This document shows positions 26,120 through 63,382 of a stretch of DNA of 64,000 nucleotides, piece by piece. Both the position numbers and the translations under genes were made by a program. This DNA is from Candidatus Latescibacterota bacterium. Lineage in GTDB: Bacteria > Latescibacterota > UBA2968. The DNA lies in contig OZ241986.1 in assembly GCA_965204375.1 (NCBI GenBank), forward strand, positions 4,992,001 through 5,056,000, written 5' to 3'. Each line of letters begins with the position of its first letter. Within the stretch, counting starts at the first letter, position 1. The notes below the pieces were generated by a model. It had not been told where the DNA came from. It saw nothing but the letters and a program-made list of their open reading frames with translations, and made no database searches.

Positions 26120-26320
26120 TCGAAACTATTGCGGTGTGATTACTCCCAACGATAGAGCAGTTGGGCTTCTTGGTGGTCAATCCACCTGACTTTGTAATCC
26201 CAAAGTCAATATGTTTATCGCAGCATTATGGTCTCTGTCCGTCGTATAGCCACACTTTTTACAACGATGCACACGCTGAGAAAGTGGTTTCTTTTCTCTG
26301 TGTCCGCATGCCGAGCAATC
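26120..26320 (-). ncRNA. predicted omegaRNA (reRNA) overlapping tnpB 3' end; boundaries approximate
   Basis: Inferred from established TnpB architecture; scaffold would end at TCAC 26136 and the guide read into the flank ACCGCAATAGTTTCGA. Confidence 0.45.
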
Positions 26321-27295
26321 TTGTGACGTATAATCAGGCTTGACAGCTTTGAATCCAATACCAGCTTCTTCCGCTTTGTATTCGAGACAATGCCGAAACA
26401 GGGACCACGCTACGTCTGCTATTGATTTAGCCAATCGCCTGTTCTTTTGCATCTTTTGAACTTTCAGCTTCTCTACGGCTATAAAGCCGTGACGATTGAC
26501 CACTTTTCTTGATTCTTGATGGGCAAAGTTATGTCGCTTATTACGGATACGCTCATGCACTCTTGCAACAACCTTACGTGCTCTCTCTCGTCTCTTTGGA
26601 CAGACCTTTTTCGCCGTGTCCCATTTGCGCTGTGCTTTGGCAAGCGTCTTTTCCTCTTTTCTAAAGAATCGCTGGTTGGCTATTTTCTCGCCGTCACTGG
26701 TTACAGCAAAGGAATTAAGACCAACGTCAATGCCTATGGCAGAGCCAGCATCCGTTTTTTCAGGCGCGTCGCCCATATCACAAGAGATAGACGCAAACCA
26801 TTTGCCAGTAGCCGTGCGAGTGATGGTGCAAGATTTAGGAATGCCGTCAAGGGGCCTGTGCTGGACAACACGAATACAACCTATTTTGCCCAAACGCAAG
26901 CCTTTATCGTCTAATCGGCAACCGTTGGAAAATTGAGGATAGGTGATAGAATCATAGCGATTCTGTCCTTTGTATCTGGGAAAGCCGGCTTTCTCGCCTG
27001 TCTTTGCTCTTTCTTTGAGACGGCGAAAGAATCCTTTGAATGCCAAATCAACCCTTGTTGATACTTGTTGCAATGCCTGAGAATATACTTCCTTTAATGT
27101 AGGACGCTGTTGTTTCATCAGTGGTATTATTTTGTTCTGTTCATAACGAGACAGAGACTTATTTTCATTTTTCCACGCCTGTATTCTCGCACAGAGAAAT
27201 TGGTTAAACAGCAATCGACATTCTTCAATATGCGCCATCAAGATATTCTCTTGCTTTTTCGTTGGACGCAATCTGTATTTGAATGACTTAACCAT
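26177..27295 (-). CDS. tnpB: RNA-guided endonuclease TnpB
   Basis: KSFKYRLRPT, GFPRYK, RuvC GIDVG / AVEKL / DRDHNAAINI, Zn finger CSAC-CKKC. Confidence 0.93.
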   Translation of the reverse strand: MVKSFKYRLRPTKKQENILMAHIEECRLLFNQFLCARIQAWKNENKSLSRYEQNKIIPLMKQQRPTLKEVYSQALQQVSTRVDLAFKGFFRRLKERAKTGEKAGFPRYKGQNRYDSITYPQFSNGCRLDDKGLRLGKIGCIRVVQHRPLDGIPKSCTITRTATGKWFASISCDMGDAPEKTDAGSAIGIDVGLNSFAVTSDGEKIANQRFFRKEEKTLAKAQRKWDTAKKVCPKRRERARKVVARVHERIRNKRHNFAHQESRKVVNRHGFIAVEKLKVQKMQKNRRLAKSIADVAWSLFRHCLEYKAEEAGIGFKAVKPDYTSQDCSACGHREKKPLSQRVHRCKKCGYTTDRDHNAAINILTLGLQSQVD

Positions 27296-27301
27296 AAGTA
27301 A

Positions 27302-27330
27302 AATATACACTTATGCACGCACTATGTCAA
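27302..27330 (-). promoter_or_regulatory. sigma70 promoter of tnpB (probably leaderless)
   Basis: Minus strand TTGACA-17-TATATT, 6 nt before ATG. Confidence 0.6.
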
Positions 27331-27713
27331 GCGATATAGCAACGCTCATATACGCTAAAGCTACAAAGGCTATTGGATAACTTATTGTTCGCAAGCTATA
27401 TCATGTCAAAATTTATTCCCTTGCCTTCAGATATGCGCTTGGCTAATTTATTTCATCTTGTCATCGTTTAATTTTACTTTGTACACCTATGGGACTGTGA
27501 AGTAAAGCTGGGTTCTGAGGAATAATCTCATACTCCTGTAAATAGTCCCAATTAGCAATCAGACTTTGGCAAATAGGCGAAGGCAGACTTGTTCGCGCGG
27601 ATCATTAAAGTGCGACCCGGCCTGCCTTTTTTGTAAAGGTTAGTAGCCTTAATTTTATTTGGAACACGCTGTTTTTTTATGTATGATAACATCTGATTTT
27701 TAGATTGCACGAC

Positions 27714-28061
27714 ATGTGGCCTGTTGAATTTTACCAAAATGAAAACGGACAAGAGCCTGTCAGAGACTTTTTGCTTTCGCTTCACCCAAAGCCAAGAGGA
27801 AAGGTCTTGCAGGTGATTCAGATCCTTTCAGAGTTTGGTATCAATCTCCCCTTTTCCTATTCGAGTCAAGTTGAGGGAAGGCTGAGAGAACTGCGAGCGG
27901 GTTATGGCAAAAATCAATATCGCGTTCTGTACTACTGTAATGCGAATCGCGTTTTTGTCCTGTTGCACGCATTTGAAAAACGAAGCCAGAAACTTCCGCA
28001 AAGAGAAATCCGAATTGCGATGGAACGCATGATGGCTGACCGGAAACAACAAGAGGGATAA
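27714..28061 (+). CDS. higB: RelE/HigB-family toxin (Gp49-like)
   Basis: VEFYQNENGQEPVRDFL, LRELR, YRVLY, LLHAFEKRSQKLP. Confidence 0.85.
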   Translation: MWPVEFYQNENGQEPVRDFLLSLHPKPRGKVLQVIQILSEFGINLPFSYSSQVEGRLRELRAGYGKNQYRVLYYCNANRVFVLLHAFEKRSQKLPQREIRIAMERMMADRKQQEG

Positions 28062-28065
28062 AAAT

Positions 28066-28371
28066 ATGGCACGCCAGAAGACAAGTACTCAGACATTTCT
28101 CGAAGAACAATTGAAAGATCGAGAAGTCGCAGAATCATTTTACCAGGGACTTGATGAACTGCGGCTTGCGGTTAAAATTGCTCAACTGCGGCAACGTCGA
28201 GGATTAACACAAGCGCAATTAGCAGCGAAGCTGGACACCAGTACACCGGTAATTAGCAGATTGGAAAACCGTGGAAATTGTACCATCAGTACCCTTAAAA
28301 AGGTCGCCGAAGCATTGGACGCGGTAGTGCAAATTGACATCGTGTCTAAAGAGTCACGCCCTGGAATGTAA
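28066..28371 (+). CDS. higA: XRE-family HTH antitoxin (HigA-like)
   Basis: LRQRRGLTQAQLAAKLDTSTPVISRLEN, TISTLKKVAEAL; follows the toxin. Confidence 0.85.
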   Translation: MARQKTSTQTFLEEQLKDREVAESFYQGLDELRLAVKIAQLRQRRGLTQAQLAAKLDTSTPVISRLENRGNCTISTLKKVAEALDAVVQIDIVSKESRPGM

Positions 28372-36600: not shown

Positions 36601-36629
36601 TTGACACTATTTTTATATTCCTATATATT
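36601..36629 (+). promoter_or_regulatory. sigma70 promoter driving a gene-less structured transcript
   Basis: TTGACA-17-TATATT; -35 is half of palindrome AGTGTCAA-N6-TTGACACT. Confidence 0.65.
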
Positions 36630-36635
36630 TTTAGC

Positions 36636-36775
36636 ATTGCCCCTTCAGACATTCAGTGCTGAAGCCCCCGGACTTGTTAGTGGGTCCGGGTTGAATTTGT
36701 AAATAATTAACCACCCCTGTTGCTTCGGGAGCAGGGCGCGAAGCCGTATAGAATTCTATACGGCTTCTGCATTTT
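36636..36775 (+). ncRNA. putative two-module structured RNA; 3' module is a copy of the NYN gene leader
   Basis: Four hairpins; 36690-36775 nearly identical to 56837-56922; no downstream + strand ORF. Confidence 0.55.
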
Positions 36776-36785
36776 GGAAATCGTG

Positions 36786-38062: not shown

Positions 38063-40960
38063 TTAAACGTCAATCCGCGTCGATTTACCGCCATGAACGC
38101 TCGGCTCGGCGCACCATTGGTCGCGCAAAATGGAGAGGGGTTCAAGAGTTGCTTCGGGCAGGCGCAACAGGTCCACCAGGACCGCACGGTCAAGAGCTTT
38201 CCGAGTTTCGTCCCGATACGCTTCGTTGGCTGGTAGAAACTCCGCTTCCTCGAATGCTTCAAAGATGTCCTCGGCTTGAGCGATCTGCTCCTCACTGAGG
38301 GAGCGTGGGTCCAACACCGTTAGACGAGGTAGTTGAGTGATTGTGAGAATCGCACGGCCCTGTTGCTGTCGAGATCCAATCCACCAGAAGGCGAGGAGGC
38401 CCAATGTTGTATTGGACCACAAGACCAGGGGTACGGTCCACTCGTCTTGTGCCGGGATAAAGTTAGGCCATGCTCGACCACCAATCGTTTTGGCTGGCGT
38501 GAGACAAGCAGTGAGGCTTTGCGAGTTGATCCGAAAATCGAGGTTGAAGTGTAGCCGTGAGGCAGTTGTGTTCCACACCTCAATAGCGTGAGCGTCACAG
38601 TCGGGGCGGACTTCTCCCTCGCTATCGGGGAGGACGACGAGGCTCCGTTCACGCTGGGCATCGTGGCCCCATAAAACCGGATACTGCGGCACGCCTTGAA
38701 TGGGGATGATTTCAAACGGTCCTCGCGGTGCTCCATTGGTAGTTCCGGAGATGTCGCGGTGAAGCAGACCTGTCTTGCCGATAGCTCCGAGGTGAATTGT
38801 GGAAAGTGGCGTGGAGTAGCCTTGGGGTAGCCGAAGCCTTCCTGCTTCCAGCCCAAGAGCGGTATCGGCGAGTGTGGTTTCACGGAGGGACGCACAACCG
38901 CCCTGGCTTAAAGGTGCCCGAATGTACGTGCCGATGGTCTGGTGATTTCCTACATTCAGCCGCCCTTGCCGATCTTGAGGTGAGAGGTGACTTACCGCCC
39001 GCGCTGTCTCAAAGGCTTCCGCGAGGTTGTGTGGCCGGTGATAGAGATTGACAAACAGCGTTTCCCCACATCCCTGTTGTCCACCGCGGCACTTGTTGGC
39101 CACCACGAGGGCTTCGGCCATGCCTGTATCGGCTGAAAAGGCTCGATCTGTCTGACCGTGCGCTGCAATAGTCAGCACGACCAAGTCCTTGTACTTGCTT
39201 TCCAGCAAGCGACGGGCGTCCTTCCAAGAACTACCGCTCACACACGCCGCTGGCAGGACCAGCGCGAGGACACCGCCGGGCTTAGTCTTGATGTGGGCGA
39301 GGTCAATGAAGTTGGACGCCAGCCCTGCGTTACCGTGGCCGACCGGATTGACTAACTGCCGACGGATCTGAGCTAGCCGTTTGGACATGGCCTGTTGTTC
39401 ATCTTCACTTGTACCCAACCCGGCAAAAGACGGTACTGGCACCTCGGCCTTCTCATGGTTGGTTGGTCGTGTGAAGGGGGGATTCATAATTACCAGATCA
39501 GCCGTTCCGGAGGGGAGGATCATGTCCTGGCTTCCCTCGGCTTCCACATCTGCACCCGTACCGCGTGCCACATGGATGCCTGTTCCAAACAGCGATGGTG
39601 CTGTGTCATCCTCAATGAGGTCGAGAGCACCCAGGGCCATGGTATGCCGCTTTTCTTGGCTCTGCTGTCCATAGGGCAAAGTGTGGACACGAGTGTTACC
39701 AAAGGTTGTGCCCGGATGAGTGCTCGATAGCATGGATGCGGTAAGATGCGTTGCGGCTGGCATGATGTCGGCAGCGATGAGGGCGTGTTCCATCATCTTA
39801 GTGTGCAGCACCTGATCGTCACCGCCAATTCGCCGATGACGCGAGGCCAAGGCACGGTACGCCGCCGAGAGCAGAGTGCCGGTTCCGCAGGCAAGGTCGG
39901 CGACCTGGAGACGGGTGAGGGCATCGGGGTTGGACCAATCCGTTACCGCGTCGAGGCGTGATACGGCCAACTCACCGAGTAGCGCAGCAGATGTCGGTAG
40001 CGTGTAGAATGTGGCGAGGAACTTCCGATCAGCAATAAGCCTCTGGAACATGCGCCCAGAGAGGTCGTGTAAGGTGGTAGCTCCTAAGCCAGCTAAATCA
40101 CTGGCTGCCTGAGCGAGACGATTGAGAACTACATGCGCGGTGCTGTCGGCGATAGGCAGGAGCAGGTCGGAGGCAATGCGGAAGATCGGATAGTAATTGA
40201 TATTGTCGAGGATATGCTGCCAGCAGGCGAGCAAGCGGCTTTTACTGACATCGTTGCGGCCAGGAATACGCAATTCGTCGATGGTTTCGATACCGTGCGC
40301 GTCAACAATAGCGGTGTGGAAGACGAGGGCGTTGGCGACAATGGCCATGGCCATACGCGAGGTTTGCTCACCATCTTCTTGATGGAGGGACTGCGCCATT
40401 CTCTCCAGCGCATGGATGCTGGCTGTTTCGCGTAGCTTGCCAGCGGCTTCGCCTATGCTCTGTTCCAGAATTTGCGTTCCCTCAGCAAGCAGCCGTTCAG
40501 ACAGTGCGACGTTTTCAATGCAGGCAGCAAGATCAGCAATACTACCGGTAAGCCAACCCTCAGACGGCCAGCGCACGACAGTATCCTTTTCTTGCAGTGA
40601 GAAGGTACAGTAACGGAACTCAGCGGTTTCGATTTGCCGCTTTAGGTCTCCCTGTGGCGCACGACTCAGTTCTTGTGGGACCTGGACAGCTATGGTCTGC
40701 TCTATCAAGTCGCCGTTGTACTCCAAGAATTTTCCCAAACGAGCCGTAGCATCTGCTTCGACGCTACGCGCTGGTATAAACTCTGTCTCGATAATGACTG
40801 GTACACCGCCTGGAGGACGAATGACAATATCCGGTTGCAGGACGGTCTCTCGGAGGACATCCCGTTGCTCCACACCGACGTGATCGCGCCAGCGTGGATG
40901 CTTGGTCTGTAGTACATCTAATAGCCGGACATTGAAGGCGATTTCGTTGGTTTTGGGCAT
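38063..40960 (-). CDS. type IIG-like fused restriction endonuclease / N6-adenine methyltransferase
   Basis: N-terminal QPDIVI...IIETE; FYTLP; DLACGTGTLL (motif I); IMNPPF (motif IV); C-terminal TRD-like region. Confidence 0.75.
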   Translation of the reverse strand: MPKTNEIAFNVRLLDVLQTKHPRWRDHVGVEQRDVLRETVLQPDIVIRPPGGVPVIIETEFIPARSVEADATARLGKFLEYNGDLIEQTIAVQVPQELSRAPQGDLKRQIETAEFRYCTFSLQEKDTVVRWPSEGWLTGSIADLAACIENVALSERLLAEGTQILEQSIGEAAGKLRETASIHALERMAQSLHQEDGEQTSRMAMAIVANALVFHTAIVDAHGIETIDELRIPGRNDVSKSRLLACWQHILDNINYYPIFRIASDLLLPIADSTAHVVLNRLAQAASDLAGLGATTLHDLSGRMFQRLIADRKFLATFYTLPTSAALLGELAVSRLDAVTDWSNPDALTRLQVADLACGTGTLLSAAYRALASRHRRIGGDDQVLHTKMMEHALIAADIMPAATHLTASMLSSTHPGTTFGNTRVHTLPYGQQSQEKRHTMALGALDLIEDDTAPSLFGTGIHVARGTGADVEAEGSQDMILPSGTADLVIMNPPFTRPTNHEKAEVPVPSFAGLGTSEDEQQAMSKRLAQIRRQLVNPVGHGNAGLASNFIDLAHIKTKPGGVLALVLPAACVSGSSWKDARRLLESKYKDLVVLTIAAHGQTDRAFSADTGMAEALVVANKCRGGQQGCGETLFVNLYHRPHNLAEAFETARAVSHLSPQDRQGRLNVGNHQTIGTYIRAPLSQGGCASLRETTLADTALGLEAGRLRLPQGYSTPLSTIHLGAIGKTGLLHRDISGTTNGAPRGPFEIIPIQGVPQYPVLWGHDAQRERSLVVLPDSEGEVRPDCDAHAIEVWNTTASRLHFNLDFRINSQSLTACLTPAKTIGGRAWPNFIPAQDEWTVPLVLWSNTTLGLLAFWWIGSRQQQGRAILTITQLPRLTVLDPRSLSEEQIAQAEDIFEAFEEAEFLPANEAYRDETRKALDRAVLVDLLRLPEATLEPLSILRDQWCAEPSVHGGKSTRIDV

Positions 40961-51801: not shown

Positions 51802-53349
51802 ATGAACAAACGCAGACTGCCCATCGGCATCCAGACCTTCAGCAAAATTCGGGAGGAAAACTACTACTATGTCGATAAAACAGACCACATTCGACGGCTG
51901 CTCGACGAGGGCACGCACTACTTTTTATCGCGTCCACGTCGCTTTGGCAAAAGTCTGTTTCTGGATACGCTGAAGGAACTGTTTGAGGGCAATGAACCGC
52001 TGTTTGAGGGGCTTCATATCTACGATCATTGGGACTGGAGCGTTCGTTATCCTGTTGTGCGCTTGAGCTTTGGCAGGGGCAATTTCAAAGAAGCGGGATA
52101 CCTGCTGGCGAATGTGATGGCGCAACTGCACACCATAGCGGAAGAAGCCGGTATTGCACCGCGTTACGATACGGCGCCGGAGTGCTTTAGCGATCTGATT
52201 CGGGTATTGCATCGGCAGGCTGGGCAGCGCGTGGCTGTTCTCATTGACGAATACGACAAGCCGATCCTTGATGCTCTGGAAGTACCGGAGGTTGCACGTG
52301 CCAACCGCGATTTTCTGCGCGGTCTATACGCGACCATCAAGGATAGCGATGCTCATATCAAGTTCACATTCCTCACGGGCGTCAGTAAATTCTCCAAGGT
52401 ACATCTGTTCTCTGGTCTCAACAACCTCACAGATATTACCATTGATCCGCGATATTCCGCCTTATGCGGCTACACCGAAGAGGACCTCGACACGGTATTC
52501 GCGCCAGAACTGCCTGGTCTGGATCGAAACGAGATCCGCGACTGGTACAACGGCTATAGTTGGCTGGGCGAAGATAAGGTGTACAACCCCTTCGACATCC
52601 TCCTGCTCTTTGACAAGCGCACCTTCGGCACGTACTGGTTCGAGACTGGCACGCCCACCTTCCTCATTGAGACCCTGTTCAAACACCGTGTCAGTTCCTT
52701 GAAACTCGACGAAATGATCGGCAGTAGCGACTTGTTATCCACCTTCGATGTAGATGAAATCGCGACCGAGGCTCTGTTGTTTCAAACCGGGTATCTGACC
52801 ATTACAGGTGAGGAGAACCTCGGCGGCGAATCCCTGTACCGACTGGGTTATCCCAATCGGGAGGTGCGCCAGAGCCTCAACCGAAGCCTATTGCGCTATC
52901 TGGTAAAAGACGCCACGCGCCAGATGGCGAACAGTGTCCAACTCTACCGCCTGATAGAAGCCAATGACTTTGCCGGTCTCGAGACCTTATTCCACGCCTT
53001 CTTTGCCAGTATTCCCTACGAGTGGTACACCAACAACGACATCGCCAGTTTTGAAGGCTACTATGCCAGCGTGTTCTATTCCTATTTCGCGGGCCTGGGT
53101 CTCAATATCACCGTAGAGGATAGCAGCAGCTATGGGCGTGTGGATATGGCTGTTCACTTCAACGATAACATCTACCTGTTCGAGTTCAAGGTGGTGGAAC
53201 TGGCGTCTGAGGGCGCGGCAATGGCGCAATTGAAGGAGAAGGGATACGCGGACAAATACCGGAGTCTGGACCAGCCGATATACCTGATCGGGGTAGAGTT
53301 CAGCAAGGATACCCGCAATATAACGGCCTTTGAAGTCGCACGCGCCTGA
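51802..53349 (+). CDS. AAA-ATPase-like domain plus C-terminal PD-(D/E)XK nuclease (PDDEXK_9/DUF1703 type)
   Basis: LPIGIQTF, YYVDKT, SRPRRFGKS, LIDEYDKP, GRVD...FEFK, Q..EKGYA. Confidence 0.88.
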   Translation: MNKRRLPIGIQTFSKIREENYYYVDKTDHIRRLLDEGTHYFLSRPRRFGKSLFLDTLKELFEGNEPLFEGLHIYDHWDWSVRYPVVRLSFGRGNFKEAGYLLANVMAQLHTIAEEAGIAPRYDTAPECFSDLIRVLHRQAGQRVAVLIDEYDKPILDALEVPEVARANRDFLRGLYATIKDSDAHIKFTFLTGVSKFSKVHLFSGLNNLTDITIDPRYSALCGYTEEDLDTVFAPELPGLDRNEIRDWYNGYSWLGEDKVYNPFDILLLFDKRTFGTYWFETGTPTFLIETLFKHRVSSLKLDEMIGSSDLLSTFDVDEIATEALLFQTGYLTITGEENLGGESLYRLGYPNREVRQSLNRSLLRYLVKDATRQMANSVQLYRLIEANDFAGLETLFHAFFASIPYEWYTNNDIASFEGYYASVFYSYFAGLGLNITVEDSSSYGRVDMAVHFNDNIYLFEFKVVELASEGAAMAQLKEKGYADKYRSLDQPIYLIGVEFSKDTRNITAFEVARA

Positions 53350-53405: not shown

Positions 53406-55028
53406 ATGCGATTTGGTACCATGTTGTTGGTATTAACAGTCTCAATGATAACGCAATCGTGCAGAATTGAGTCTCCATTTTTTGTTAACATCGTTGCAAG
53501 CCAGGTAGTGTATGGCTATACTCTTGGGGAAGGACCATCTCCATTCAAACTTCAAAGCAGCATTGCACTCAGAATGCAAAACGGTTTTAAGGACACCCTC
53601 ATCATTGGAGATGATTCAGGAACCCGTCATGGAGTACGCATGAGAAATGTCATGCATAATAATGTGGGCATCCCTCTTAAGAATCTTGTGTTCTTCAGTA
53701 AATTTGGGTATATCGATTGGGATGTGGGCACCAGAGAAAATCGTGGATTACGTCTCCTTACCTCGGGGAGGTATGAAATGTTACGAAAAGCAACTCGAGT
53801 AGTGCATGTACCGAAATTCACACCGTTTGAGTCCTCACACAATGTGCCAAGAATACGAGAAAACACCATACTGTTTGTTGTGGGAGTTGGTAACATGATA
53901 GGTTCATTTAATGAAGACCGGGATATGTACAACATTAACCATGTGGTATGGAATGATAGGGGTCTTGGACCATACTACACGCCAAGAGAAAACTACAAAG
54001 ATGTCCTGGAGGCATATAATACCGGCAAAGTCATTGCAGCAACATCTGCGCTGATAACAGATGCAGGGACAGTCAAGCCGTATAAAGAGGTAGTATCCTG
54101 CGGGGATATCAAAGAATCATGTTTTACTGTACTAGAATCATTTTATACTTCCAGTGCTTCAGCTCATCTTGCCGGAATATCCTTTTATCTGGCACAGTTT
54201 TGGGAAACACCGGAAGAGATAGTTGATGTGTTGAAGTCCTGTGCAATAGATATTGGAGAACCAGGAGTTGATCGTGAATTTGGTCAAGGAGCGGTAAATC
54301 TCTGGTGTCCCAGGGTCCTGAAAAAAGAAGTGGAGATGGTTTCAGAATATCTGGGAAATACAGGAGAAAGAGGGGAAACATTGCAAGGAGGAAATCTTGA
54401 AGGTCTCTGGAGAGCTGACAGCACTACTCTGCAGGTATATATCCCAAGATCGCTAAAAGAAACCACGAGGGCTGAATATCAAGGAGGAACGGTAAATGGC
54501 ACAGTGGAGTTTGCGGGTGGTATGGCAACAGCAGATTTCACCGCAAGAGGGGTGATAAAGGCAGGATTCCTCATGCTCACTCGACCCATTGAAGCAACCG
54601 CTGAAGATGTGATTCGGTTTGAAGAGGCATACACCGTTGATCAGGAAAAGATAGCAGCTGGTGATCAATCCTTTAGCTACACAGCAACAAGAGATTCTCT
54701 GCATTTGGTGCGAACTTTCTCGCTGAATGAAGCGCTGTCCTTGTTACCAGATCCTCTGGGAAGCATGGTAGACATGGCATCACCTGATTTCTTTGCTGAT
54801 GACCCCATACAACTGAGAATGAGTTTTTTGAGAGAAAAATCTTTTCTTCTTGGTGACTTTAACGAAGACGGCAGGGTTGATACTGCTGATTTCTTACTGT
54901 TCGTTGATACCTTTGGATCATCCCGAGGAGATATATCATTTGATGAAACCATGGATCTCGTCCCTGACGGCATCATCAATGTTGCTGACTTCATCATCTT
55001 TATTGATCAATTCGGCAAAACAGCATAA
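53406..55028 (+). CDS. lipoprotein, divergent subtilase (S8)-like, with C-terminal dockerin-like/EF-hand pair (paralog 1)
   Basis: Lipobox-like TQSC; GDDSG, RHG, GVGN, YTSSASA, DIGEPGVDREFGQG; GDFNEDGRVDTADFLLF. Confidence 0.6.
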   Translation: MRFGTMLLVLTVSMITQSCRIESPFFVNIVASQVVYGYTLGEGPSPFKLQSSIALRMQNGFKDTLIIGDDSGTRHGVRMRNVMHNNVGIPLKNLVFFSKFGYIDWDVGTRENRGLRLLTSGRYEMLRKATRVVHVPKFTPFESSHNVPRIRENTILFVVGVGNMIGSFNEDRDMYNINHVVWNDRGLGPYYTPRENYKDVLEAYNTGKVIAATSALITDAGTVKPYKEVVSCGDIKESCFTVLESFYTSSASAHLAGISFYLAQFWETPEEIVDVLKSCAIDIGEPGVDREFGQGAVNLWCPRVLKKEVEMVSEYLGNTGERGETLQGGNLEGLWRADSTTLQVYIPRSLKETTRAEYQGGTVNGTVEFAGGMATADFTARGVIKAGFLMLTRPIEATAEDVIRFEEAYTVDQEKIAAGDQSFSYTATRDSLHLVRTFSLNEALSLLPDPLGSMVDMASPDFFADDPIQLRMSFLREKSFLLGDFNEDGRVDTADFLLFVDTFGSSRGDISFDETMDLVPDGIINVADFIIFIDQFGKTA

Positions 55029-55195: not shown

Positions 55196-56773
55196 ATGCA
55201 TACTGCTAAGGTGTTTGCGGTACTTGCTGCAGCAATGCTGCTGCAATCCTGCAGGATTGAAATGCCTTCGTTGATTCATATTATTAGTAATTATGTACCG
55301 AATGCTCTGGAGCATCCGAATATGTATAACTTTAGTACAAGTAAAGCGGTTACACTGCAAGGTGGCTTCAAAGATACGCTCATTCTTGGTGATCCATGGG
55401 AGTGGCATGCATCGCTTATGCATAATGTGTTAACCAGGTGGCGCATTCCTGAAGAAAGTATTCTTCTCTTTGGAGATTTTGGATTTTCTGCTGGAGACGG
55501 TAATGAAGGATTACGCCTCCTCATATCAGGTGATTACGAAGAACTGCGCAAAGCGACACGCGTTGTTGCTCTGCCGATGTCTCCTCCTTTTACAGAGCCA
55601 GTGGATGTGCCGAGGGTACTGCGTACGAACACACTGTTTGCCTTAGCAGCCGATAATATGGATGATTACCATGAAGGGGATCGTGATTTCTACAACATTA
55701 ACCATGTCGCCTGGAGTCACCGCAACCCTGAAGTAGATCAGATGTTTAAGATATACTACCAGGCCATTCTGGATGTCTACAACACGGGTAAAGTCATAGC
55801 GGCAACTTCAGCGCGTGTGACTGAGGCAGGGGAGGTTAAGCCGTTTGAGCATGTCGTGCAGTGCGGAGACATTAAAGAGTCTTGTTTCACGATGATTCCA
55901 GAGCAAACCACCTCAAGCACTTCCACCCGCCTCGCCGCCATGTCCTTCTACCTTGCACAGTTCTATGCAACACCTGAGGAGATCATTGATGTTCTCAAAG
56001 AATGTGCGATAGATGTCGGAGAACCCGGAGTAGACAGAGAATACGGCAGAGGTGTCGTAAATCTTCTGTGTCCCCGTGTACTGCACAAAGAGTTAGAGAT
56101 TGTCGGAAAGCACCTGGAACGAGAAGCAACAAAGGAAATGTTCACAGGAGGAGATCTTGTCGGCACCTGGGAAGCAAAAGAAACAGACCTGCAGGTACAT
56201 ATACCTCAGGTACTCAGAGAAACTGTGGAGACCACGTATACAGGTACCGTCACCGGTACGCTTGCGTTTACAGAGGAAACAGTGCAAGCAGACATCAGTC
56301 TGCAGGCATCCATTGCCGCTCACTTCCTTCTTCCCCTCAAAGCGAAAGCAGAAGATGTGATTAAAACAGAAGGCATCTACACCACTGAAGACCATCAGGT
56401 TACTTTTCCGGAGGGAAGAGTATTCACCTACCATGCGACCGATGATTCTCTCTCGTTAACCCGGCACCTCTCTTTAACTGATATCCTCCGTCTTCTTCCA
56501 GGACACTTCGGTTCCATGGCAGAGCAGCACGGAAAAGAGTTACTCAGTGATCCTGTGGCAATCACCTTGCGTTTCAGGAAAGCACGAATACCCGGTGACT
56601 TTGACAACAATGAGGTTATCGACTTCGCCGACTTCCTCCTCTTCATTCAGGCATTCGGATCTGTTCGGGGAGATGCAGTGTTTAACGAAAGAATGGATTT
56701 GGTGCCTGACGATATGATTAACTTTGCCGATTTCATCATATTTATTGAAAATTTCGGGAATTATGTAGGATAG
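55196..56773 (+). CDS. lipoprotein, divergent subtilase-like, with dockerin-like tail (paralog 2)
   Basis: LQSC; WHAS, AADN, TTSSTS, DVGEPGVDREYGRG; GDFDNNEVIDFADFLLF; collinear with paralog 1. Confidence 0.6.
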   Translation: MHTAKVFAVLAAAMLLQSCRIEMPSLIHIISNYVPNALEHPNMYNFSTSKAVTLQGGFKDTLILGDPWEWHASLMHNVLTRWRIPEESILLFGDFGFSAGDGNEGLRLLISGDYEELRKATRVVALPMSPPFTEPVDVPRVLRTNTLFALAADNMDDYHEGDRDFYNINHVAWSHRNPEVDQMFKIYYQAILDVYNTGKVIAATSARVTEAGEVKPFEHVVQCGDIKESCFTMIPEQTTSSTSTRLAAMSFYLAQFYATPEEIIDVLKECAIDVGEPGVDREYGRGVVNLLCPRVLHKELEIVGKHLEREATKEMFTGGDLVGTWEAKETDLQVHIPQVLRETVETTYTGTVTGTLAFTEETVQADISLQASIAAHFLLPLKAKAEDVIKTEGIYTTEDHQVTFPEGRVFTYHATDDSLSLTRHLSLTDILRLLPGHFGSMAEQHGKELLSDPVAITLRFRKARIPGDFDNNEVIDFADFLLFIQAFGSVRGDAVFNERMDLVPDDMINFADFIIFIENFGNYVG

Positions 56774-56798
56774 TGACCAAAGGAAAAACTAAAAACCA

Positions 56799-56827
56799 TT
56801 GACATTACTGTCCTATTGTTGTATTGT
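56799..56827 (+). promoter_or_regulatory. sigma70 promoter of the NYN unit
   Basis: TTGACA-17-TATTGT (an additional TATAAT at 56831). Confidence 0.65.
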
Positions 56828-56836
56828 GTATATAAT

Positions 56837-56922
56837 GTTGAATAAAAAATAATTTACCACCCCTGTTGCTTCGGGAGCAGGGCGCGAAGCCGTATAGATT
56901 TTCTATACGGCTTCTGCTTTTT
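56837..56922 (+). ncRNA. structured leader / putative antitoxin RNA upstream of NYN gene
   Basis: CCCTGTT-gc-TTCG-gg-AGCAGGG hairpin, then GAAGCCGTATAGA/TCTATACGGCTTC stem and T-run; second copy at 36690. Confidence 0.6.
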
Positions 56923-56932
56923 AGGAGATTTG

Positions 56933-57592
56933 ATGAAAACCTATATTTATATTGATGGGCTTAATTTATATTATAGAGCCGTGCGAGGGACGCCTTATAA
57001 GTGGTTAGATATAGCTACATTATTTCAAACAATGTATCCCCACAACAACATTTGTAAAATCAAATACTTTACTTCAATTGTAAAATCGCGCCCTGATGAT
57101 CCAGGGAAACCAGGACGCCAACAGATGTTCTTGCGGGCTTTAAGAACTTTTCCACATATTGAAATCATTGAAGGAAAATTTCAGATGAACAAAGCCAGAA
57201 TGCGATTGGTTTCGCCAGACCCTAATGGCCCTAATACCGCAGAAGTTTGGAAAACAGAAGAAAAAGGATCAGATGTCAACATAGCTGTCCATTTATTAAA
57301 CGATGCTCATAGTAAAAATTTTGATGTTGCTGTTCTTGTATCAAATGATTCTGATTTCGCCGAGGCTATACGAATTGTAACCCAAGATTTAAACTTGCAG
57401 GTAAGCGTGGTATCTCCTACTGGCGCAATCAATCCTAATACAGGTGATCGAGAACCAGCCAGAACTTCAAGAACCCTTCAACAATATGCTTCATCTGTAC
57501 GTCGAATTCGGTCGGGTATTCTCGCAAGCAGTCAGCTTCCTAATGTATTGACTGACTCTAAAGGGACTTTTCGCAAACCACCGGAATGGTAA
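56933..57592 (+). CDS. NYN-domain (PIN-like, LabA/DUF88) ribonuclease
   Basis: YIDGLNLYY, EEKGSDVNIA, VSNDSDF acidic active-site motifs; RBS AGGAG. Confidence 0.88.
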   Translation: MKTYIYIDGLNLYYRAVRGTPYKWLDIATLFQTMYPHNNICKIKYFTSIVKSRPDDPGKPGRQQMFLRALRTFPHIEIIEGKFQMNKARMRLVSPDPNGPNTAEVWKTEEKGSDVNIAVHLLNDAHSKNFDVAVLVSNDSDFAEAIRIVTQDLNLQVSVVSPTGAINPNTGDREPARTSRTLQQYASSVRRIRSGILASSQLPNVLTDSKGTFRKPPEW

Positions 57593-57707
57593 TAAAACCA
57601 CAAACCTTTGGTCACTATCCTACATAACTCCCCAATATAACTACCTTTGAGGTCATATCTGCGTAACTCGCCTGGTGTTCATCCAGGCACCACAACTACC
57701 TTCCTGC

Positions 57708-57735: not shown

Positions 57736-57961
57736 GTGTACTTTTTCCAATAATCCCCCTATTTCATTCCAATCCCAACTGTTTCATTTGAAACACTTAC
57801 TGTGTCATTTGAAACAGTTGGCCGCATGCTCAATTTTCGGCATTTTCTAAAAATGCGCTCTCCTGCAAGCAGTTACGGATTTTTCGGGTTTTTGGCACGC
57901 TTTTTGCGCTATATAAAGGACACGAAGTTTCAATTTCAAACCATACAGGAGGGCGTTTCTC

Positions 57962-58807
57962 ATGATACACCAGTCCGTAGAACGCAAAGAAAAACTCCAT
58001 CTGCTTAAAGAAAACCTATCAAAACGCATCGACACCCTGCTCATCGGTCCAATCGGCATAGGCAAAAGCCATCTCCTCGCGCAAGTCGATGCAGACCATG
58101 TACTCAAAGTAAAAACCCTATCCCCAATAAAAGAAGCCCTCATAAATATTGCGGAAGAACTTCACAAAAGTGGAAAACTTTATCCGCATATTGAGGACTT
58201 TGAAAAAATCAAAAAACGACACACCCGCGAAACCATTCAAGCATGGACAGACATAGTACTCGACTCAGTGACAAAAAACGAATGCGTATTAATCGTAGAT
58301 GACTTATCCGACATAACGCCCTCTGTCGGGCGACTAATCGACAAACTCAACCGCAAATACATCATCATAGCCGCCCTGCGCGAAATCAAAAAAACGTACG
58401 AAAAACACTTCTGGAAATTCGACCGCATAGAAATAGAACCCTTATCCACCCCCGAAGCAAAAAACCTGATCTGGCAATGTACTGCTGGCGCCGACATAGA
58501 AGATTACCACATGACCGAAACATCCATATTACAACAAAGTGCTGGCAACCCGCGCGCCATCATCGAAATCGTCGAAAGACTCCGCAAAGAACCCGCCGTA
58601 ACCCGATCCGTCGTGCAACATGTATCTCACACAGGCGCCCGAAACCAGATTGACCTCACCTTCATAGTCGTCCTCCTCTTACTCGCAGTCGTCGCAGCGC
58701 GATTCTTCATGCGTGGCATCGGGAGCATGGAAGGCTATGTGCTCGCTGGCATCGGCAGCGCGATCCTCGTAGGCATTCGATTCTTCATGTACAGGTTCAA
58801 ACGATGA
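57962..58807 (+). CDS. P-loop ATPase with two C-terminal TM helices
   Basis: GPIGIGKS Walker A, LIVDDL Walker B, AGNPRA, hydrophobic C-terminus; RBS AGGAGG. Confidence 0.7.
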   Translation: MIHQSVERKEKLHLLKENLSKRIDTLLIGPIGIGKSHLLAQVDADHVLKVKTLSPIKEALINIAEELHKSGKLYPHIEDFEKIKKRHTRETIQAWTDIVLDSVTKNECVLIVDDLSDITPSVGRLIDKLNRKYIIIAALREIKKTYEKHFWKFDRIEIEPLSTPEAKNLIWQCTAGADIEDYHMTETSILQQSAGNPRAIIEIVERLRKEPAVTRSVVQHVSHTGARNQIDLTFIVVLLLLAVVAARFFMRGIGSMEGYVLAGIGSAILVGIRFFMYRFKR

Positions 58808-59985
58808 CCGCACCGACACACATAGCATTTGGACTGCTCACCGTGGCGGGATCCTTTTCGTTCTTCTCCATGCCCCTTCACCGCAACCTCCCCGCTGTCG
58901 CCTGCGCCATCATAGGAAGCGTGCTCCCGGATATAGATTCGCCAAAGAGCTATATCGGTCGCGTGCTCCCTTATGCATCCATCCCCATTGAGAGGCAATG
59001 GGGACACCGCACAATCACACACTCGCTACCTTGCCTGATCGCCCTATCGGTTATGATCTGGCCCCTGCTCATTTGGCAAACCCCGTGCTATGCGGCCCTA
59101 CTCCTGGGCTATATGAGTCATTTAATCGCCGATTGCGCCACCAGGAGCGGCGTACCCCTATTTTATCCCCATTCAGCGGCCTGTGTCTTCCCCGGCAGCG
59201 CGAAATACAGAATCAAAACCGGATCTGTGGGAGAACGCTACCTGTTAATCGGGCTCGTATTCATGCTCCTGATATTCCTGCCCATATTGCACATGGGAGG
59301 CATCTGGAAATCATTCAGATACCTCATGGCCACGCCCTCTGCTGCATACGCAGATTACCGACAAGCCGACACAGAAACCATCTTAACCTTTGAAGGACGC
59401 TGGCGACACACGCGGGAGCACGTACGCGGAGAAGGTGTGATCCTCGATGCCAGATCCACCATGTTCTGGATCGTAGTCAAAGGACAGGTTCAAACATGCG
59501 GAGAACACGGCGCCATCTTACCGGGCAAAGTGCGCGTGCGCGAAACAGATCGCCCCGTACAAATACAGACGCTCCAGTTGAAAAACGAAACATGGGAGCA
59601 ACTGGTAAATCAGATCCCCAAAAACAGTTTTGTATCTGGACAACTCAAAGCAACTGAAACATTCTCCCCCAGGCGCGAAACTCCCAATGCCATCACCGTC
59701 ACCTCCCGGTCATTGAAATTTCAATTTGCCCGAAAAGGGGACATCACGCGGCTTCAGCCCGTCTCTCAAAATTTATCAGAACGCGTAAAAAATCTATCAG
59801 AGGAAATATTGAGAATTTGTGAAAAACTGGAAATCGCAAAAATGGCTTATCCGCCAGTTCACTACCTCGAACTGAGTCGAATGGAACAAGAAATTACAGA
59901 AAAAAGAAAAAAAATCGAAAAACTGAAACGCGCCCAGGTACGATTCAGTGGCACATTACACATTCGCATACCGGGAGAGACATAA
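58804..59985 (+). CDS. YdjM-like inner-membrane metal-dependent hydrolase with C-terminal extension
   Basis: PTH, GSVLPDIDSPKS, HRTITHS, GYMSHLIAD, GVPLFYP; ATGA overlap with the ATPase. Confidence 0.75.
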   Translation: MTAPTHIAFGLLTVAGSFSFFSMPLHRNLPAVACAIIGSVLPDIDSPKSYIGRVLPYASIPIERQWGHRTITHSLPCLIALSVMIWPLLIWQTPCYAALLLGYMSHLIADCATRSGVPLFYPHSAACVFPGSAKYRIKTGSVGERYLLIGLVFMLLIFLPILHMGGIWKSFRYLMATPSAAYADYRQADTETILTFEGRWRHTREHVRGEGVILDARSTMFWIVVKGQVQTCGEHGAILPGKVRVRETDRPVQIQTLQLKNETWEQLVNQIPKNSFVSGQLKATETFSPRRETPNAITVTSRSLKFQFARKGDITRLQPVSQNLSERVKNLSEEILRICEKLEIAKMAYPPVHYLELSRMEQEITEKRKKIEKLKRAQVRFSGTLHIRIPGET

Positions 59986-60040: not shown

Positions 60041-62500
60041 TCAGGCATTTCGGAAAAACTCAATACGCCTGTTAATATCCCTCGCCACCTCAAGAACCTC
60101 CACAGGTGCACGAACCATCTCGCCGGAACGCTGTCGTAAGGCAACAATAAGAGGTTCCAACGCATCGGATTTCCCCCTGGACAGGAGAATATCGACAAGA
60201 TCAGGCTCCGAGGCACCGTTTGCGATCAAATCGGGCACGAGTTGTAGTATCTCGTACATCATCGTCTCATTGTCAGGTAGGAACACCGCATACGCCGACT
60301 GAAACACATCCATAGCCATCCGTAGTCTGTTCCTTAGCAGCAGTGCCAAAGCATGGACATACTTTGCTCGCCATACAAACACCACCTTCTCATCGTCAGC
60401 CAACGCACCGAGTCTTCCCTCAAGCTCTTCACTTATGAGCATAGCTTCTTTCATACGCCCTACCTTAATTTGTATCATACCCTTTTGGGACAATGCCCAG
60501 GCGATCAGAACCCGGATCGCTGGCACATCGCTGGTACCAAAACGCTCGATCACTTCCTCATACGCAGATACTGCCAGCCCCAACTCTCCCAGTTGGGCTT
60601 GCAAATCTCCCTTTTGGGACAACGCATAGGCGACCATAAGCTGAATCCCCGATGCATCGCTGGAGCCAAAACGGGCAATCACCTCTTCATATACAGACAC
60701 CGCCAAACCCAACTCTTTCTGTTGGACTTGCAAATCTCCCTTTTTTAACAGCGCCAGAGCGACCGGAAACTGGAAATCGGGAGCGTCGCTGGTACCAAAA
60801 CGCTCAATCACCTCCTCATATGCCGACATCACCAACCCCAACTCTCCGAGTTCATATCGCGCTCTTGCCCCGTGGATCAATACGCGGGCCATCCGCGCCA
60901 GGAGTGTATGGTCGCTCGCGTCGTCGAAACGCTCAACCGTCTCATCGCAAACCGCGACCACCCTTTGGAAATCCTCCAATTTTTCATAAGCAATAGCCCT
61001 CATATGCAATATGTAGGCGACGAGAGACTCTGGCATCAGAGATGCATCCACGCTTCCTGAAGCGATAAAATGGTCCCCAATCTCGATAACCCTCTCGTAT
61101 TCTCTCTCATCGAGTGCCGTTTGGATCTCCTCTTTTAAACGCAGTTCCGCCGCAAATGGCGAATTTGCTGTCGCCCTGTCCGATATGTGTTCGATGGCCG
61201 ACCAGGCCACGCGCAAAAAATTGTCCTCAACCTGCGGTTGTTCGGCGAGCGCACGCTCAATACCCTCGCGAATAACCTTTGACTCCGCCGCCGCCAAACT
61301 CAGCCGACCAGACATCTGGTACAACTCGCCTATCCCGTAGAACGCCATCATGAAATGGATCAGATTCCTCATATCTGTCGCCTCGTCGCGCTCGCGCCGC
61401 AACTTGTAATAGATGCTATAGAGAGGTTCCCCTGCGGCGTACAATCGCTTCCTTCCAGCCCCCTCCACGACGACCGCACCCCGGTTGACAAGCCGACCGA
61501 GCATAGTCGATACGGGCCGAACCCCCATACGCGCCCGCGCCGCGATCTCGCTCGTACTCGACGGTCGCCAAAAATCAATCAACGCGAGATACACGCGGCG
61601 CTCGCTCCTGGGCAAAGCCTCCAGATAACCGCGAAAATACTCGGTATGCTCATCAACCAGCGTCACCAGTTCTTCCATCAACTGGCGCAACGACCTGTGC
61701 TGCGCGAACTCGGCAACCATAATCAGGAGGCGGGGATTGCCACCGGTCAGAATCTCGAGCGGCCTGATCTCCTGTTCAGTCACCGCATCGCCGCTGACCA
61801 CCTGCCACAGACGGCAACAGTCCTCGGTACTCAGCGGTTCCAGATCGACAATTCGGAACAACTCAAAAAACGGCTCCGCCGCATTTTCCAGACCCTCAAA
61901 GCGACTCGTCGCAGTAGCGATCAGCACGATCCGAGGCTCGGACTCCAATGCGCCGCGCAACTGCCAGCCAAAATCGTCATCTATATCTTCGCAGAGCGTT
62001 TGCAGGTTTTCGACCATAAGAACGAGTTTTTTGCCCAACCGGTCCGCCGCGTCCAGAACAGCGGCACGGGCGCGATCCGCGAGCGCATCCTCATCCCAGT
62101 GATCGGTCAGATCGGCATGCGCCTCTCGCAACTCCTGTGCGAGCGCGGAATCGTACTTGACGCTCTCCCGCGCAAGATAGAACAGCGTCTCGAGCCAAAA
62201 ATCTGCAAGATTGAATATCTCGTGACTCTCCTCCATAAACCGAACCGACAAAAAACACATAGAGAGTTCCTTATCAGCATTCAACTCCGCCGAGACGCGC
62301 GCGAGCAACATCGTCTTTCCCCGCCCCCGAGGCGCGACCACCAGAACGTGCTGGCACGATGGTGAACCGATATTTCTGCGCAGCACCCCAAGCACCGTAT
62401 CGAGTTCGTGTTTCCTCACCGCGAACTGATCAATCACCTCTTCGTCGGACTGGAACGTCCCCGGATTGAACTTGCGGATTGGACGATCAGACTTGTTCAT
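60041..62500 (-). CDS. STAND-like ATPase + winged helix + TPR-repeat protein
   Basis: APRGRGKT, LMVENL, TGGNPRL, wHTH STSEIAARA, tandem ~40-aa repeats AYEEVIERFG. Confidence 0.75.
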   Translation of the reverse strand: MNKSDRPIRKFNPGTFQSDEEVIDQFAVRKHELDTVLGVLRRNIGSPSCQHVLVVAPRGRGKTMLLARVSAELNADKELSMCFLSVRFMEESHEIFNLADFWLETLFYLARESVKYDSALAQELREAHADLTDHWDEDALADRARAAVLDAADRLGKKLVLMVENLQTLCEDIDDDFGWQLRGALESEPRIVLIATATSRFEGLENAAEPFFELFRIVDLEPLSTEDCCRLWQVVSGDAVTEQEIRPLEILTGGNPRLLIMVAEFAQHRSLRQLMEELVTLVDEHTEYFRGYLEALPRSERRVYLALIDFWRPSSTSEIAARARMGVRPVSTMLGRLVNRGAVVVEGAGRKRLYAAGEPLYSIYYKLRRERDEATDMRNLIHFMMAFYGIGELYQMSGRLSLAAAESKVIREGIERALAEQPQVEDNFLRVAWSAIEHISDRATANSPFAAELRLKEEIQTALDEREYERVIEIGDHFIASGSVDASLMPESLVAYILHMRAIAYEKLEDFQRVVAVCDETVERFDDASDHTLLARMARVLIHGARARYELGELGLVMSAYEEVIERFGTSDAPDFQFPVALALLKKGDLQVQQKELGLAVSVYEEVIARFGSSDASGIQLMVAYALSQKGDLQAQLGELGLAVSAYEEVIERFGTSDVPAIRVLIAWALSQKGMIQIKVGRMKEAMLISEELEGRLGALADDEKVVFVWRAKYVHALALLLRNRLRMAMDVFQSAYAVFLPDNETMMYEILQLVPDLIANGASEPDLVDILLSRGKSDALEPLIVALRQRSGEMVRAPVEVLEVARDINRRIEFFRNA

Positions 62501-62528
62501 TACACATTCCTCAGTATTTATTAAATCG

Positions 62529-62633
62529 TTGTCAACGAAACTGTTGACAAAATAATATTTGGAAAAAAAATGTCAACCAAATTGTTGACAAAAATAATAT
62601 AAGAAAAACTTTTGTCAACCAAATTGTTGACAA
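62529..62633. repeat. three tandem palindromes TGTCAAC-N6-GTTGACA
   Basis: Starts at 62530, 62571, 62613 (41-42-bp period). Confidence 0.85.
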
Positions 62634-62786
62634 AAACTAACCTGCTATATAAATCATTCTCTACCATTAAGATACGACATGAAATACCGCGCATTGCCAT
62701 TGCGCGAGCACTATACAAAATCGGCCTTGATAAATTCCAAGTCTCCATGTATCTTCATTGTATCTACTATTCAAAGGAGAAAAGAT

Positions 62787-63029
62787 ATGGAAACCCGTGT
62801 GCAGAAATGGGGCAATAGTTTAGCCCTGCGAATTCCCAAACCACTCGCTGTCCAAATCGGGCTTGAACCCAATTCACCGGTCGAATTATCGCTGCGTGGT
62901 AAGGAGTTGGTCATTGAACCTGTAAAGCCATCTGACTTGAAATTGGACGACCTTTTATCCCAGGTAACGGAACATAACTTACACGGTGAAGTAGATACTG
63001 GACCTGCGACAGGCGGTGAAATATGGTGA
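62787..63029 (+). CDS. mazE: MazE/AbrB antitoxin
   Basis: VQKWGNSLALRIPK, HGEVDTG...GGEIW. Confidence 0.92.
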   Translation: METRVQKWGNSLALRIPKPLAVQIGLEPNSPVELSLRGKELVIEPVKPSDLKLDDLLSQVTEHNLHGEVDTGPATGGEIW

Positions 63030-63382
63030 CGCCAGACGAGTACGTTCCACAGCGCGGCGATGCGGTCTGGATCAACTTCAATCCACAAGCAGGACATGAG
63101 CAAGCCGGCCGTCGCCCCGCCGTTGTGCTCTCACCGGGAGCTTATAATGGCAAAACTCATTTGGCTATACTCTGCCCAATTACCAATCAAGTGAAGGGGT
63201 ATCCCTTTGAGGTCGTCATTCCCGCCGGGTTAAACGTGACGGGTGTTATTCTGTCAGATCAGGTCAAGAACATGGATTGGCGGACGAGGAATGCAACGCT
63301 GATATGTCCTTTGCCCGCAGAGATAGTGGATGCGGTTTTACAAAGAGTCGGAACGCTCCTATCAAGGGAACATGGACCGTGA
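63023..63382 (+). CDS. mazF: MazF endoribonuclease toxin
   Basis: YVPQRGDAVWINFNPQAGHEQAGRRPAVVLSP, CPIT..KGYPFEV. Confidence 0.93.
   Translation: MVTPDEYVPQRGDAVWINFNPQAGHEQAGRRPAVVLSPGAYNGKTHLAILCPITNQVKGYPFEVVIPAGLNVTGVILSDQVKNMDWRTRNATLICPLPAEIVDAVLQRVGTLLSREHGP

Follow-up and report, generated by a model that had tools for sequence, protein, structure and literature searches.

Type III toxin-antitoxin (TA) systems (ToxIN, CptIN and TenpIN) possess an RNA antitoxin built of tandem direct repeats, in units of ~34-40 nt, and their toxins are ToxN/AbiQ, CptN and TenpN. Some ribonucleases also act on their own messages, since RNase E and RNase III bind or cleave the rne and rnc leaders. Among NYN-domain proteins, HEC-09 is known from the work of Payne et al. 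(bioRxiv 10.1101/2024.01.29.577857), where it is a MARF1-like NYN protein with conserved aspartates, embedded in Hma (helicase-methylase-ATPase) systems; with the native promoter region included in the clone, it left E. coli unprotected against all phages tested, and the accessible part of that preprint treats it as a single protein, with no RNA mentioned there. A search of open-access papers and preprints returned no link of NYN to an RNA antitoxin, to type III TA or to a structured RNA motif. Here we analysed a 64,000-nt stretch of contig OZ241986.1 from a Candidatus Latescibacterota bacterium (the whole stretch is called the window hereafter), in which a gene of the HEC-09 family follows a small structured RNA. 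The locus is a self-contained two-gene module composed of this small RNA and a NYN metallonuclease, and the RNA is a conserved family without an Rfam 15 entry. A first-pass annotation of this DNA knew of no description of such a system, but left its novelty unverified; the protein is already listed as the PADLOC candidate HEC-09, and it is the RNA partner which represents the new element.

The module, its borders and a second, orphan copy of the RNA comprise the following features.

56753-56783: left inverted-repeat arm, 31 nt, overlapping the stop codon of the upstream open reading frame (ORF) 55196-56773
56799-56837, + strand: promoter-like region of the RNA, with -35 TTGACA at 56799-56804 and -10 TATTGT at 56822-56827
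56832-56837, + strand: alternative -10 TATAAT, read from the sequence
56854-56924, + strand: small RNA motif matched by covariance model R1 (68.7 bits, E = 1.4e-20)
56861-56882, + strand: hairpin 1 of the window RNA, a 9-bp stem with a UUCG loop, preceded by a C-rich 5' tail
56884-56917, + strand: hairpin 2 (terminator) of the window RNA, GCGA-based, with U 56915 bulged
56918-56922, + strand: U-run of the window RNA, UUUUU, directly 3' of hairpin 2
56923-56927, + strand: Shine-Dalgarno sequence AGGAG, abutting the terminator U-run, 5 nt 5' of the ATG
56933-57592, + strand: NYN-domain nuclease gene of the HEC-09 family, 219 amino acids (aa), ATG at 56933
57605-57635: right inverted-repeat arm, 94% complementary to 56753-56783
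36601-36629, + strand: promoter-like site of the orphan RNA, TTGACA-17-TATATT, 11/12 consensus matches
36708-36777, + strand: orphan RNA copy (covariance model, 65.1 bits), terminator at 36740-36767

The order promoter, structured RNA, terminator, ribosome-binding site (RBS) and NYN gene had been proposed in the first-pass annotation, and every one of these elements was found in, or close to, the place it had been given. The promoter-like site of the window (TTGACA-17-TATTGT, 56799-56827) shows 10/12 matches and, taken alone, is not above chance (4 such sites in the region for 3.6 expected from shuffles). A terminator scan recovered a 13-bp stem at 56886-56914, with 6 GC pairs and followed by TGCTTTTT, which qualifies as an intrinsic terminator. 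The orphan copy, initially placed at 36690, was located at 36708-36777; it shares 95% identity with the window RNA over 36701-36775, and no NYN gene match was detected near it.

The RNA consists of a single two-hairpin unit of ~65-88 nt, with a C-rich 5' tail, a 9-bp UUCG hairpin and a second hairpin. In the window, the 87 nt from 56836 to 56922 fold at -34.9 kcal/mol (z = -5.48) and none of 200 shuffles folded as well. RNAalifold analysis of 27 diverse seed sequences indicated compensatory changes at 18 of the 21 pairs; 94.5% of the cells of this alignment are paired, against 76.2% in shuffles and only 37-50% in slid registers, and 0/500 shuffles reached any of the measures. An alignment of 79 sequences fitted to model R1, and hence biased towards the model, showed compensatory changes at 20/21 pairs and 94.7% of paired cells (75.0% in shuffles, with 0/500 reaching any measure). 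G-U pairs are frequent in this second alignment (for instance, UG in 39/75 rows at one pair), which favours an RNA transcribed from the strand carrying the promoter and the U-run. Both hairpins are nearly identical upstream of same-genus NYN homologues, and they are kept via compensatory changes in an Anaerolineales metagenome-assembled genome (MAG; 52% protein identity) and in a Deltaproteobacteria MAG (46%), the RNA being conserved with covariation across phyla. The lack of a conserved structure upstream of the homologues had been named among the conditions that would refute the initial proposal; a conserved, covarying one is present.

Conservation extends to unpaired positions, namely an A at model position 3 (97%) and a C right before hairpin 1 (position 8, 100%), as well as to the loop UUCG (91-100%). 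Hairpin 2 has a conserved GCGA at its base (89-100%) and, two pairs from this base, a bulge that is either U or A (GCGA...UC-U/A-GC). No tandem repeat was found in 56700-57000 and no direct repeat inside the window RNA. One R1 match was obtained per locus, except for a metagenome locus (L078) and a viral-contig locus (L145) with an extra tandem RNA copy, and the whole 6.3-Mb genome holds 3 R1 copies. Rfam 15 gave only 3 tRNAs in the whole window and, at a permissive threshold, nothing better than E = 1 in 56700-57000; in the plasmid and prophage loci described below it gave only RNAI and ALIL, which lie elsewhere in those loci and do not correspond to the RNA. That the element might be a repeated extragenic palindrome (REP), or simply the terminator of the gene upstream, was considered and rejected on account of the 3 genome copies only, the own promoter and the cross-phylum covariation.

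Longer forms of the RNA were also encountered. An extra 5' extension of ~70 nt is common to the orphan RNA (36636-36707) and to the NYN-linked RNAs of four relatives (L010-L013), in which a promoter as in the orphan copy and the extension precede the RNA and NYN. R1 does not detect this extension, in which a C-run precedes each of two additional hairpins (CUUCAG...CUGAAG and CCCGGAC...GUCCGGG); it may be a degenerate second unit. On the E. coli plasmid pKMi006_5 (L128, 280-410), a shorter look-alike lies upstream of the RNA and reads CCAGCG-UUCU-GCGCUGG, then CGCGAGGG-CAA-CCUCAGC. R1 did not report it at E <= 1, and this plasmid may carry two tandem RNA units.

The RNA is linked specifically and reciprocally to the NYN clade. 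Starting from NYN, an R1 match was found beside the gene in 78/80 metagenome loci, which are the best 80 of 571 confirmed loci and include many kin, so that counts drawn from this set overstate independence. The two misses are L071 and L101, the latter with only ~100 nt of upstream sequence. On viral contigs, 31 of the 41 loci with a near-full-length NYN had an R1 match; 2 of the 10 misses are without upstream sequence, and 7 of the initial 48 loci (L179-L185) were excluded for partial or weak NYN matches. All five named plasmid or prophage records, examined with filters off, possess the RNA. It is convergent to NYN in Mycobacterium phage prophiGD43A-1 (64.3 bits) and Paenarthrobacter plasmid pYJN5-4 (48.4 bits), and tandem upstream of NYN in Leptospira weilii plasmid pLiSL18 (41.7 bits), the 3461-bp E. 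coli plasmid pKMi006_5 (26.9 bits) and Phaeobacter piscinae plasmid pP18_h (20.7 bits).

A set of 61 related genomes yielded 24 R1 matches in 17 genomes. Ten of them adjoin an intact NYN and one is separated from an intact NYN by 2.9 kb that include two ISL3 transposase genes. Four adjoin a disrupted NYN, truncated in G004 and G012 and split in G002 and G006; four strong matches are without NYN (the window orphan, G001, G015 and G054), and the remaining five, which are weaker (27-44 bits), were not sorted by neighbours. All 11 intact NYN genes of the clade in these genomes have the RNA. The search was also run in the other direction: with the RNA as starting point, a set of 151 genomes from a different class, the one holding L006, gave 16 R1 matches in 15 genomes. 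Ten are beside an intact NYN, one beside a NYN cut by a contig end, three beside a degraded NYN, one could not be assessed and one is an orphan; 14/16 adjoin NYN or NYN remnants. Persistence of the RNA beside a disrupted NYN was seen in G002, G004, G006, G012, L188, L194 and L197. In L015 (G006) and L016 (G002), NYN is split at about residue 86 by a ~1.2-kb insertion, with the upstream RNA intact; the insertion of L015 carries a 370-aa transposase-like ORF, which we take to be IS5-like.

No protein partner is shared by these loci. The absence of an adjacent protein antitoxin, noted for the window alone at first, was extended to 131 flanking ORFs of the 80 metagenome loci, among which no protein family recurs beside the module.

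The orientation of the RNA relative to NYN is variable. Among the 78 metagenome loci with a match, 57 have the RNA tandem upstream, with a median of 12 nt to the NYN start (range -2 to 111), 16 have it divergent upstream (gap of 52-112 nt) and 5 have it convergent downstream (gap of -1 to 15 nt). The type III-like order of RNA, terminator and nuclease, put forward in the first-pass annotation for the window, is present there and in these 57 loci. Since the other 21/78 loci are divergent or convergent, the RNA appears to be a separate trans-acting RNA gene, and pure autoregulation in cis would not be the whole story. A promoter-like site with at least 9/12 matches ends 4-14 nt before the model start in 46/77 RNA homologues, against 3.7% of shuffled upstream sequences; with at least 10/12 matches at the same position, the figures are 37/77 and 0.3%. 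The U-run is often short, the longest T-run being of 3 or fewer in 29/58 tandem matches. These features, read from sequence, point to the RNA being a separate gene, usually with its own sigma-70-type promoter, and not only a leader. The predicted transcript would start a few nt before the C-run and end at the U-run, for a length of ~60-75 nt; that of the window is predicted to be longer (~78-88 nt) through a longer 5' leader. As the median gap of 12 nt at tandem loci leaves no space for a second promoter, NYN is probably transcribed there by read-through of the terminator.

The protein itself presents the hallmarks of NYN nucleases. The window protein matched Pfam NYN (PF01936; E = 9.3e-13, 49.4 bits for a cut-off of 24.2) and the PADLOC HEC-09 model PDLC04163 (E = 5.3e-37), with residues 4-219 aligned on positions 5-202 of the 203 of the profile. 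NYN was the only Pfam match, PADLOC returned HEC-09 and NYN, and there was no match to ToxN, CptN or TenpN. Foldseek analysis of its AlphaFold (AF2) model (pLDDT 91.1) gave as best fold matches the LabA-like structure 2qip and the MARF1 NYN domains 5yaa and 6fdl (E from 5.7e-9 to 3.2e-6, TM of 0.72-0.74 on the target, 10-19% identity). The acidic motifs had been reported as intact, and D8, D114, D139 and D141 are indeed invariant in an alignment of 27 homologues. By its profile score above the cut-off, its PIN-like fold and its conserved acidic residues, the protein is assigned to the NYN domain. In contrast to the LabA and MARF1 NYN domains, it has an extra C-terminal beta-rich part (~165-219) with an invariant Trp at the end. 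A PDB sequence search with the family profile gave 0 matches. The family is large, with 4596 clusters at E <= 0.001 among the 4810 candidates of a word-indexed search. In the database homologues P0041, P0090 and P0095, N-terminal extensions such as 'PPAASGAGCEAV' correspond to the RNA motif read as protein and are an annotation artefact.

With moderate confidence, and from sequence comparisons, our preferred reading is that the RNA acts in trans and keeps the nuclease in check, in a type III TA-like manner. The RNA would be the dedicated trans partner of the nuclease, most likely as an inhibitory, pseudo-substrate-like ligand in excess over the protein. At tandem loci, NYN would be made only by terminator read-through, from an RBS abutting the hairpin, which would result in low nuclease synthesis; the same read-through would leave each NYN mRNA with the RNA at its 5' end. 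A loss of RNA supply, through loss of a plasmid or through phage-induced transcription shut-off, would then free the nuclease. We favour this restraining partner because co-occurrence is near-obligate, and because the RNA outlives NYN while an intact NYN of the clade is almost never seen without the RNA (none among the 61 relatives and only 2 of the 80 metagenome loci). The same reading is suggested by the terminator-then-gene layout, which would give excess RNA and a trickle of nuclease, by the extra RNA copies of L078 and L145, by the location of modules on plasmids and prophages, by the invariance of the catalytic residues and by the lack of a recurring protein partner. The first-pass annotation had proposed a NYN RNase held in check by, or autoregulated through, its upstream non-coding RNA, possibly for abortive infection. 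A structured and linked RNA is borne out, whereas regulation in cis only is contradicted by the 21/78 non-tandem loci.

Several points weigh against restraint by the RNA. Known type III antitoxins are tandem repeats processed by the toxin, and here there is one unit; to our knowledge, divergent or convergent layouts have no precedent among type III systems. Two closed hairpins with a UUCG loop should give a stable RNA, while antitoxins are usually labile. The orphan RNAs and those beside a decayed NYN could be relics, small stable hairpins having outlasted the gene. The kinship among the metagenome loci, mentioned above, also tempers their counts. Finally, the accessible text on HEC-09 reports that the gene could be cloned in E. 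coli together with the native promoter region, and that it conferred no phage protection (bioRxiv 10.1101/2024.01.29.577857).

Alternatively, the RNA could be an obligate subunit of a ribonucleoprotein (RNP), acting as scaffold, activator or specificity factor, with NYN inactive or mistargeted in its absence; we consider this unlikely. The orientation of the RNA gene beside the protein gene is variable, unlike that of type III TA, and such variability is typical of RNP partner genes, as for Y RNA with rsr and tracrRNA with cas9. Near-obligate co-occurrence of RNA and NYN is also in line with an RNP. Distant NYN clades have different, similarly built RNAs, which suggests co-diversification, and the conserved unpaired A3 (97%) and C8 (100%), together with the GCGA (89-100%) and the bulge, suggest a protein-contact surface. 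However, the RNA offers almost no variable single-stranded stretch that could serve as a guide, its stems varying only by compensation, and a 1:1 cofactor would not need a terminator-then-gene layout with excess RNA. Intact RNAs beside a dead NYN and orphans keeping their promoter also fit an RNP less well.

A leader or attenuator acting only in cis on the NYN mRNA, through termination and occlusion of the RBS, and perhaps as a site which the NYN protein itself cuts or binds, appears improbable. It would explain the 57/78 tandem loci, with a median of 12 nt from the RNA end to the start codon, and the Shine-Dalgarno sequence that directly abuts the terminator in the window. Yet an RNA lying on the opposite strand or downstream, as in 21/78 loci, cannot be a 5' leader, the orphan copies have their own promoter and terminator, and in a second NYN clade, described below, the RNA is divergent in all 11 loci of a pattern scan, once with three tandem copies. 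A leader role can be true as an added function in tandem loci.

Pairing of the C-rich 5' tail with the G-rich ribosome-binding region of NYN, which would make the RNA a type I TA-like antisense regulator, seems very unlikely to us. No other unpaired stretch is as conserved as the 5' C-run, and GGGG and GGAG occur in 15 and 20 of 78 translation-initiation regions, respectively; however, predicted duplex energies showed no cognate preference (-5.4 kcal/mol for cognate pairs, -5.47 for non-cognate and -4.69 for shuffled ones), and hairpin 1 already engages most of the C-run in its own pairs. We likewise give very little credit to hairpins that serve a mobile cassette at the DNA level, as sites of recombination or transposition or as a repeated extragenic palindrome, with NYN as a passenger: IS-type inverted repeats do bound the unit in G000 and G010, the module occurs in unrelated contexts, plasmids and prophages, and the reverse strand also folds well (z = -5.10), but the many G-U pairs would turn into A-C mismatches if the other strand were folded, the upstream promoter and downstream U-run are consistently on one strand, only 3 copies are present in the 6.3-Mb genome, and the IS-type repeats are genus-specific and outside the RNA.

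Different small RNAs were observed beside more distant NYN genes. The second NYN clade (L020-L032; 30-34% identity), which has a member in the same genome outside the window (G000:C1:5100542-5101144), is accompanied by an RNA in which a CCCCCCC tail is joined by a 9-bp hairpin, its loop UAGUA-like, and by a terminator of the form GACGCYCC...GGGGCGUU. This RNA is divergent in all 11 pattern-scan loci (L020-L022, L025-L032), is present as three tandem copies in L021, and shows compensatory changes at 8/17 pairs in 12 sequences. A third RNA type precedes NYN genes of 28-33% identity on K. pneumoniae pHKU57_3 (L133) and P. aeruginosa p2 (L137), in X. campestris (L136) and on a 5.2-kb plasmid of S. 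enterica (L135), in the order promoter, structured RNA, strong terminator and NYN start, the terminator immediately adjoining the start codon. It forms a CAACCCC...GGGGUUG stem around AGCGAUUAAGUUCAC; in the four sequences compared, the Klebsiella and Pseudomonas RNAs hardly differ.

The RNA types thus number three or more: R1, the divergent CCCCCCC/GACGCYCC type, and the AGCGAUUAAGUU type found on plasmids of Klebsiella, Pseudomonas and Salmonella. It is tentatively suggested, as a possibility short of an even chance, that stand-alone NYN nucleases of bacteria, plasmids and prophages each function as a unit with a dedicated, co-diversifying hairpin RNA, and would constitute a new class of RNA-protein system, either a new TA type or RNP nucleases. 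If the pattern holds, NYN plus its own small RNA would be a general rule for the superfamily. A new TA type would mean that a hairpin RNA without repeats neutralises a PIN-like toxin; the RNP alternative would mean a nuclease whose RNA is needed for activity or targeting. Should the RNA prove to be an antitoxin, the logic of type III systems would extend to PIN-like nucleases and non-repetitive RNAs, and if it is a cofactor, a new bacterial RNP would be at hand. The existence of an RNA partner also alters the annotation of NYN genes, some database ORFs running through the RNA, and the cloning choices to be made for them, as to whether the RNA is included and how it is oriented. In either case direct tests are feasible, a 3.4-kb E. 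coli plasmid carrying a natural example.

The module is found in diverse and often mobile surroundings. Flanking ORFs are mixed and include housekeeping genes, transposases, integrases, parts of restriction-modification systems, NOV_C, RES and Gp49. NYN relatives occur on 451 plasmid records, many from Klebsiella, Xanthomonas and E. coli, including the 3461-bp E. coli plasmid, which is of ColE1 type and has accession NZ_CP091696; one relative lies in a prophage, between two helix-turn-helix genes and an immunity repressor. In the window, the neighbours are a dockerin-like secreted protein upstream, and a P-loop ATPase and a YdjM-family protein downstream. PADLOC returned only a weak Avs2 match (E = 0.005) for these neighbours, and no Hma system surrounds the gene. 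The inverted repeats (31 nt, 94% complementary) that had been said to bound the unit are present at 56753-56783 and 57605-57635, but they belong to a genus-wide repeat family rather than to the unit alone. Their core GGGRATTATGTAGRATAGTG, noted in L121, L122, L123 and L036 as well as in the window, has 9 places in the genome (2 mismatches at most) against 2 for a reversed control; it also flanks the NYN unit of G010 and brackets a 4.7-kb segment with an IS1595-type (ISXO2-like) transposase. Bracketing by a dispersed IS-type repeat makes the unit look like a transposase-less cassette, and suggests that it moves with IS-type ends, mobilised in trans.

Other features of the window were recorded. 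Downstream of the module, at 57775-57821, a 21-nt unit of the ACTGTTTCATTTGAAACA kind is present twice, as direct and inverted repeat, ~140 nt upstream of the ATPase/YdjM genes (57962-59985), and is probably an operator. Upstream, ORFs 53406-55028 and 55196-56773 are adjacent paralogues of ~530 aa that seem to be secreted; their C-termini are dockerin-like, and no Pfam family matches the remainder. Nearby genes of mobile or defence type (26180-28368, 51802-53346 and 60044-63379) comprise TnpB/OrfB_IS605, a Gp49/HTH pair, AAA-ATPase_like with PDDEXK_9, a STAND-like AAA_16-TPR protein and a MazE/MazF pair. A 965-aa ORF on the - strand (38063-40960) has no Pfam match at E <= 0.001 and contains an NPPF motif, which presumably suggests an N6-adenine methyltransferase.

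Compared with the systems mentioned above, the module resembles the rne and rnc leaders of E. coli in having a structured element directly upstream of a ribonuclease gene, which could throttle tandem loci, but differs from them by an RNA that has its own promoter and terminator, is found on either strand or downstream, and exists as orphans. With Rsr (Ro60)/Y RNA and Cas9/tracrRNA it shares a dedicated small structured RNA gene beside the protein gene, in variable orientation; unlike in those pairs, the protein is unrelated and the RNA is without a guide-like or tethering single strand. As far as the accessible part of the preprint describes HEC-09, the window protein is of the same family, with the MARF1-like NYN fold and conserved aspartates, whereas its gene, unlike the original HEC-09, lies outside an Hma system. 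The closest layout is that of type III TA. Three differences are evident, as the RNA is one two-hairpin unit and not a tandem-repeat array (two units only in L078 and L145), the protein is a NYN (PIN-like) metallonuclease without ToxN, CptN or TenpN match, and 21/78 loci are divergent or convergent; lacking the repeat array and such a toxin, the module is not to be filed as a type III TA member. What it has in common with these systems is the succession, in the window and in 57/78 loci, of a promoter, a small RNA, an intrinsic terminator and a ribonuclease-type gene with no protein antitoxin, an RNA presumably in excess, and a presence on plasmids and prophages.

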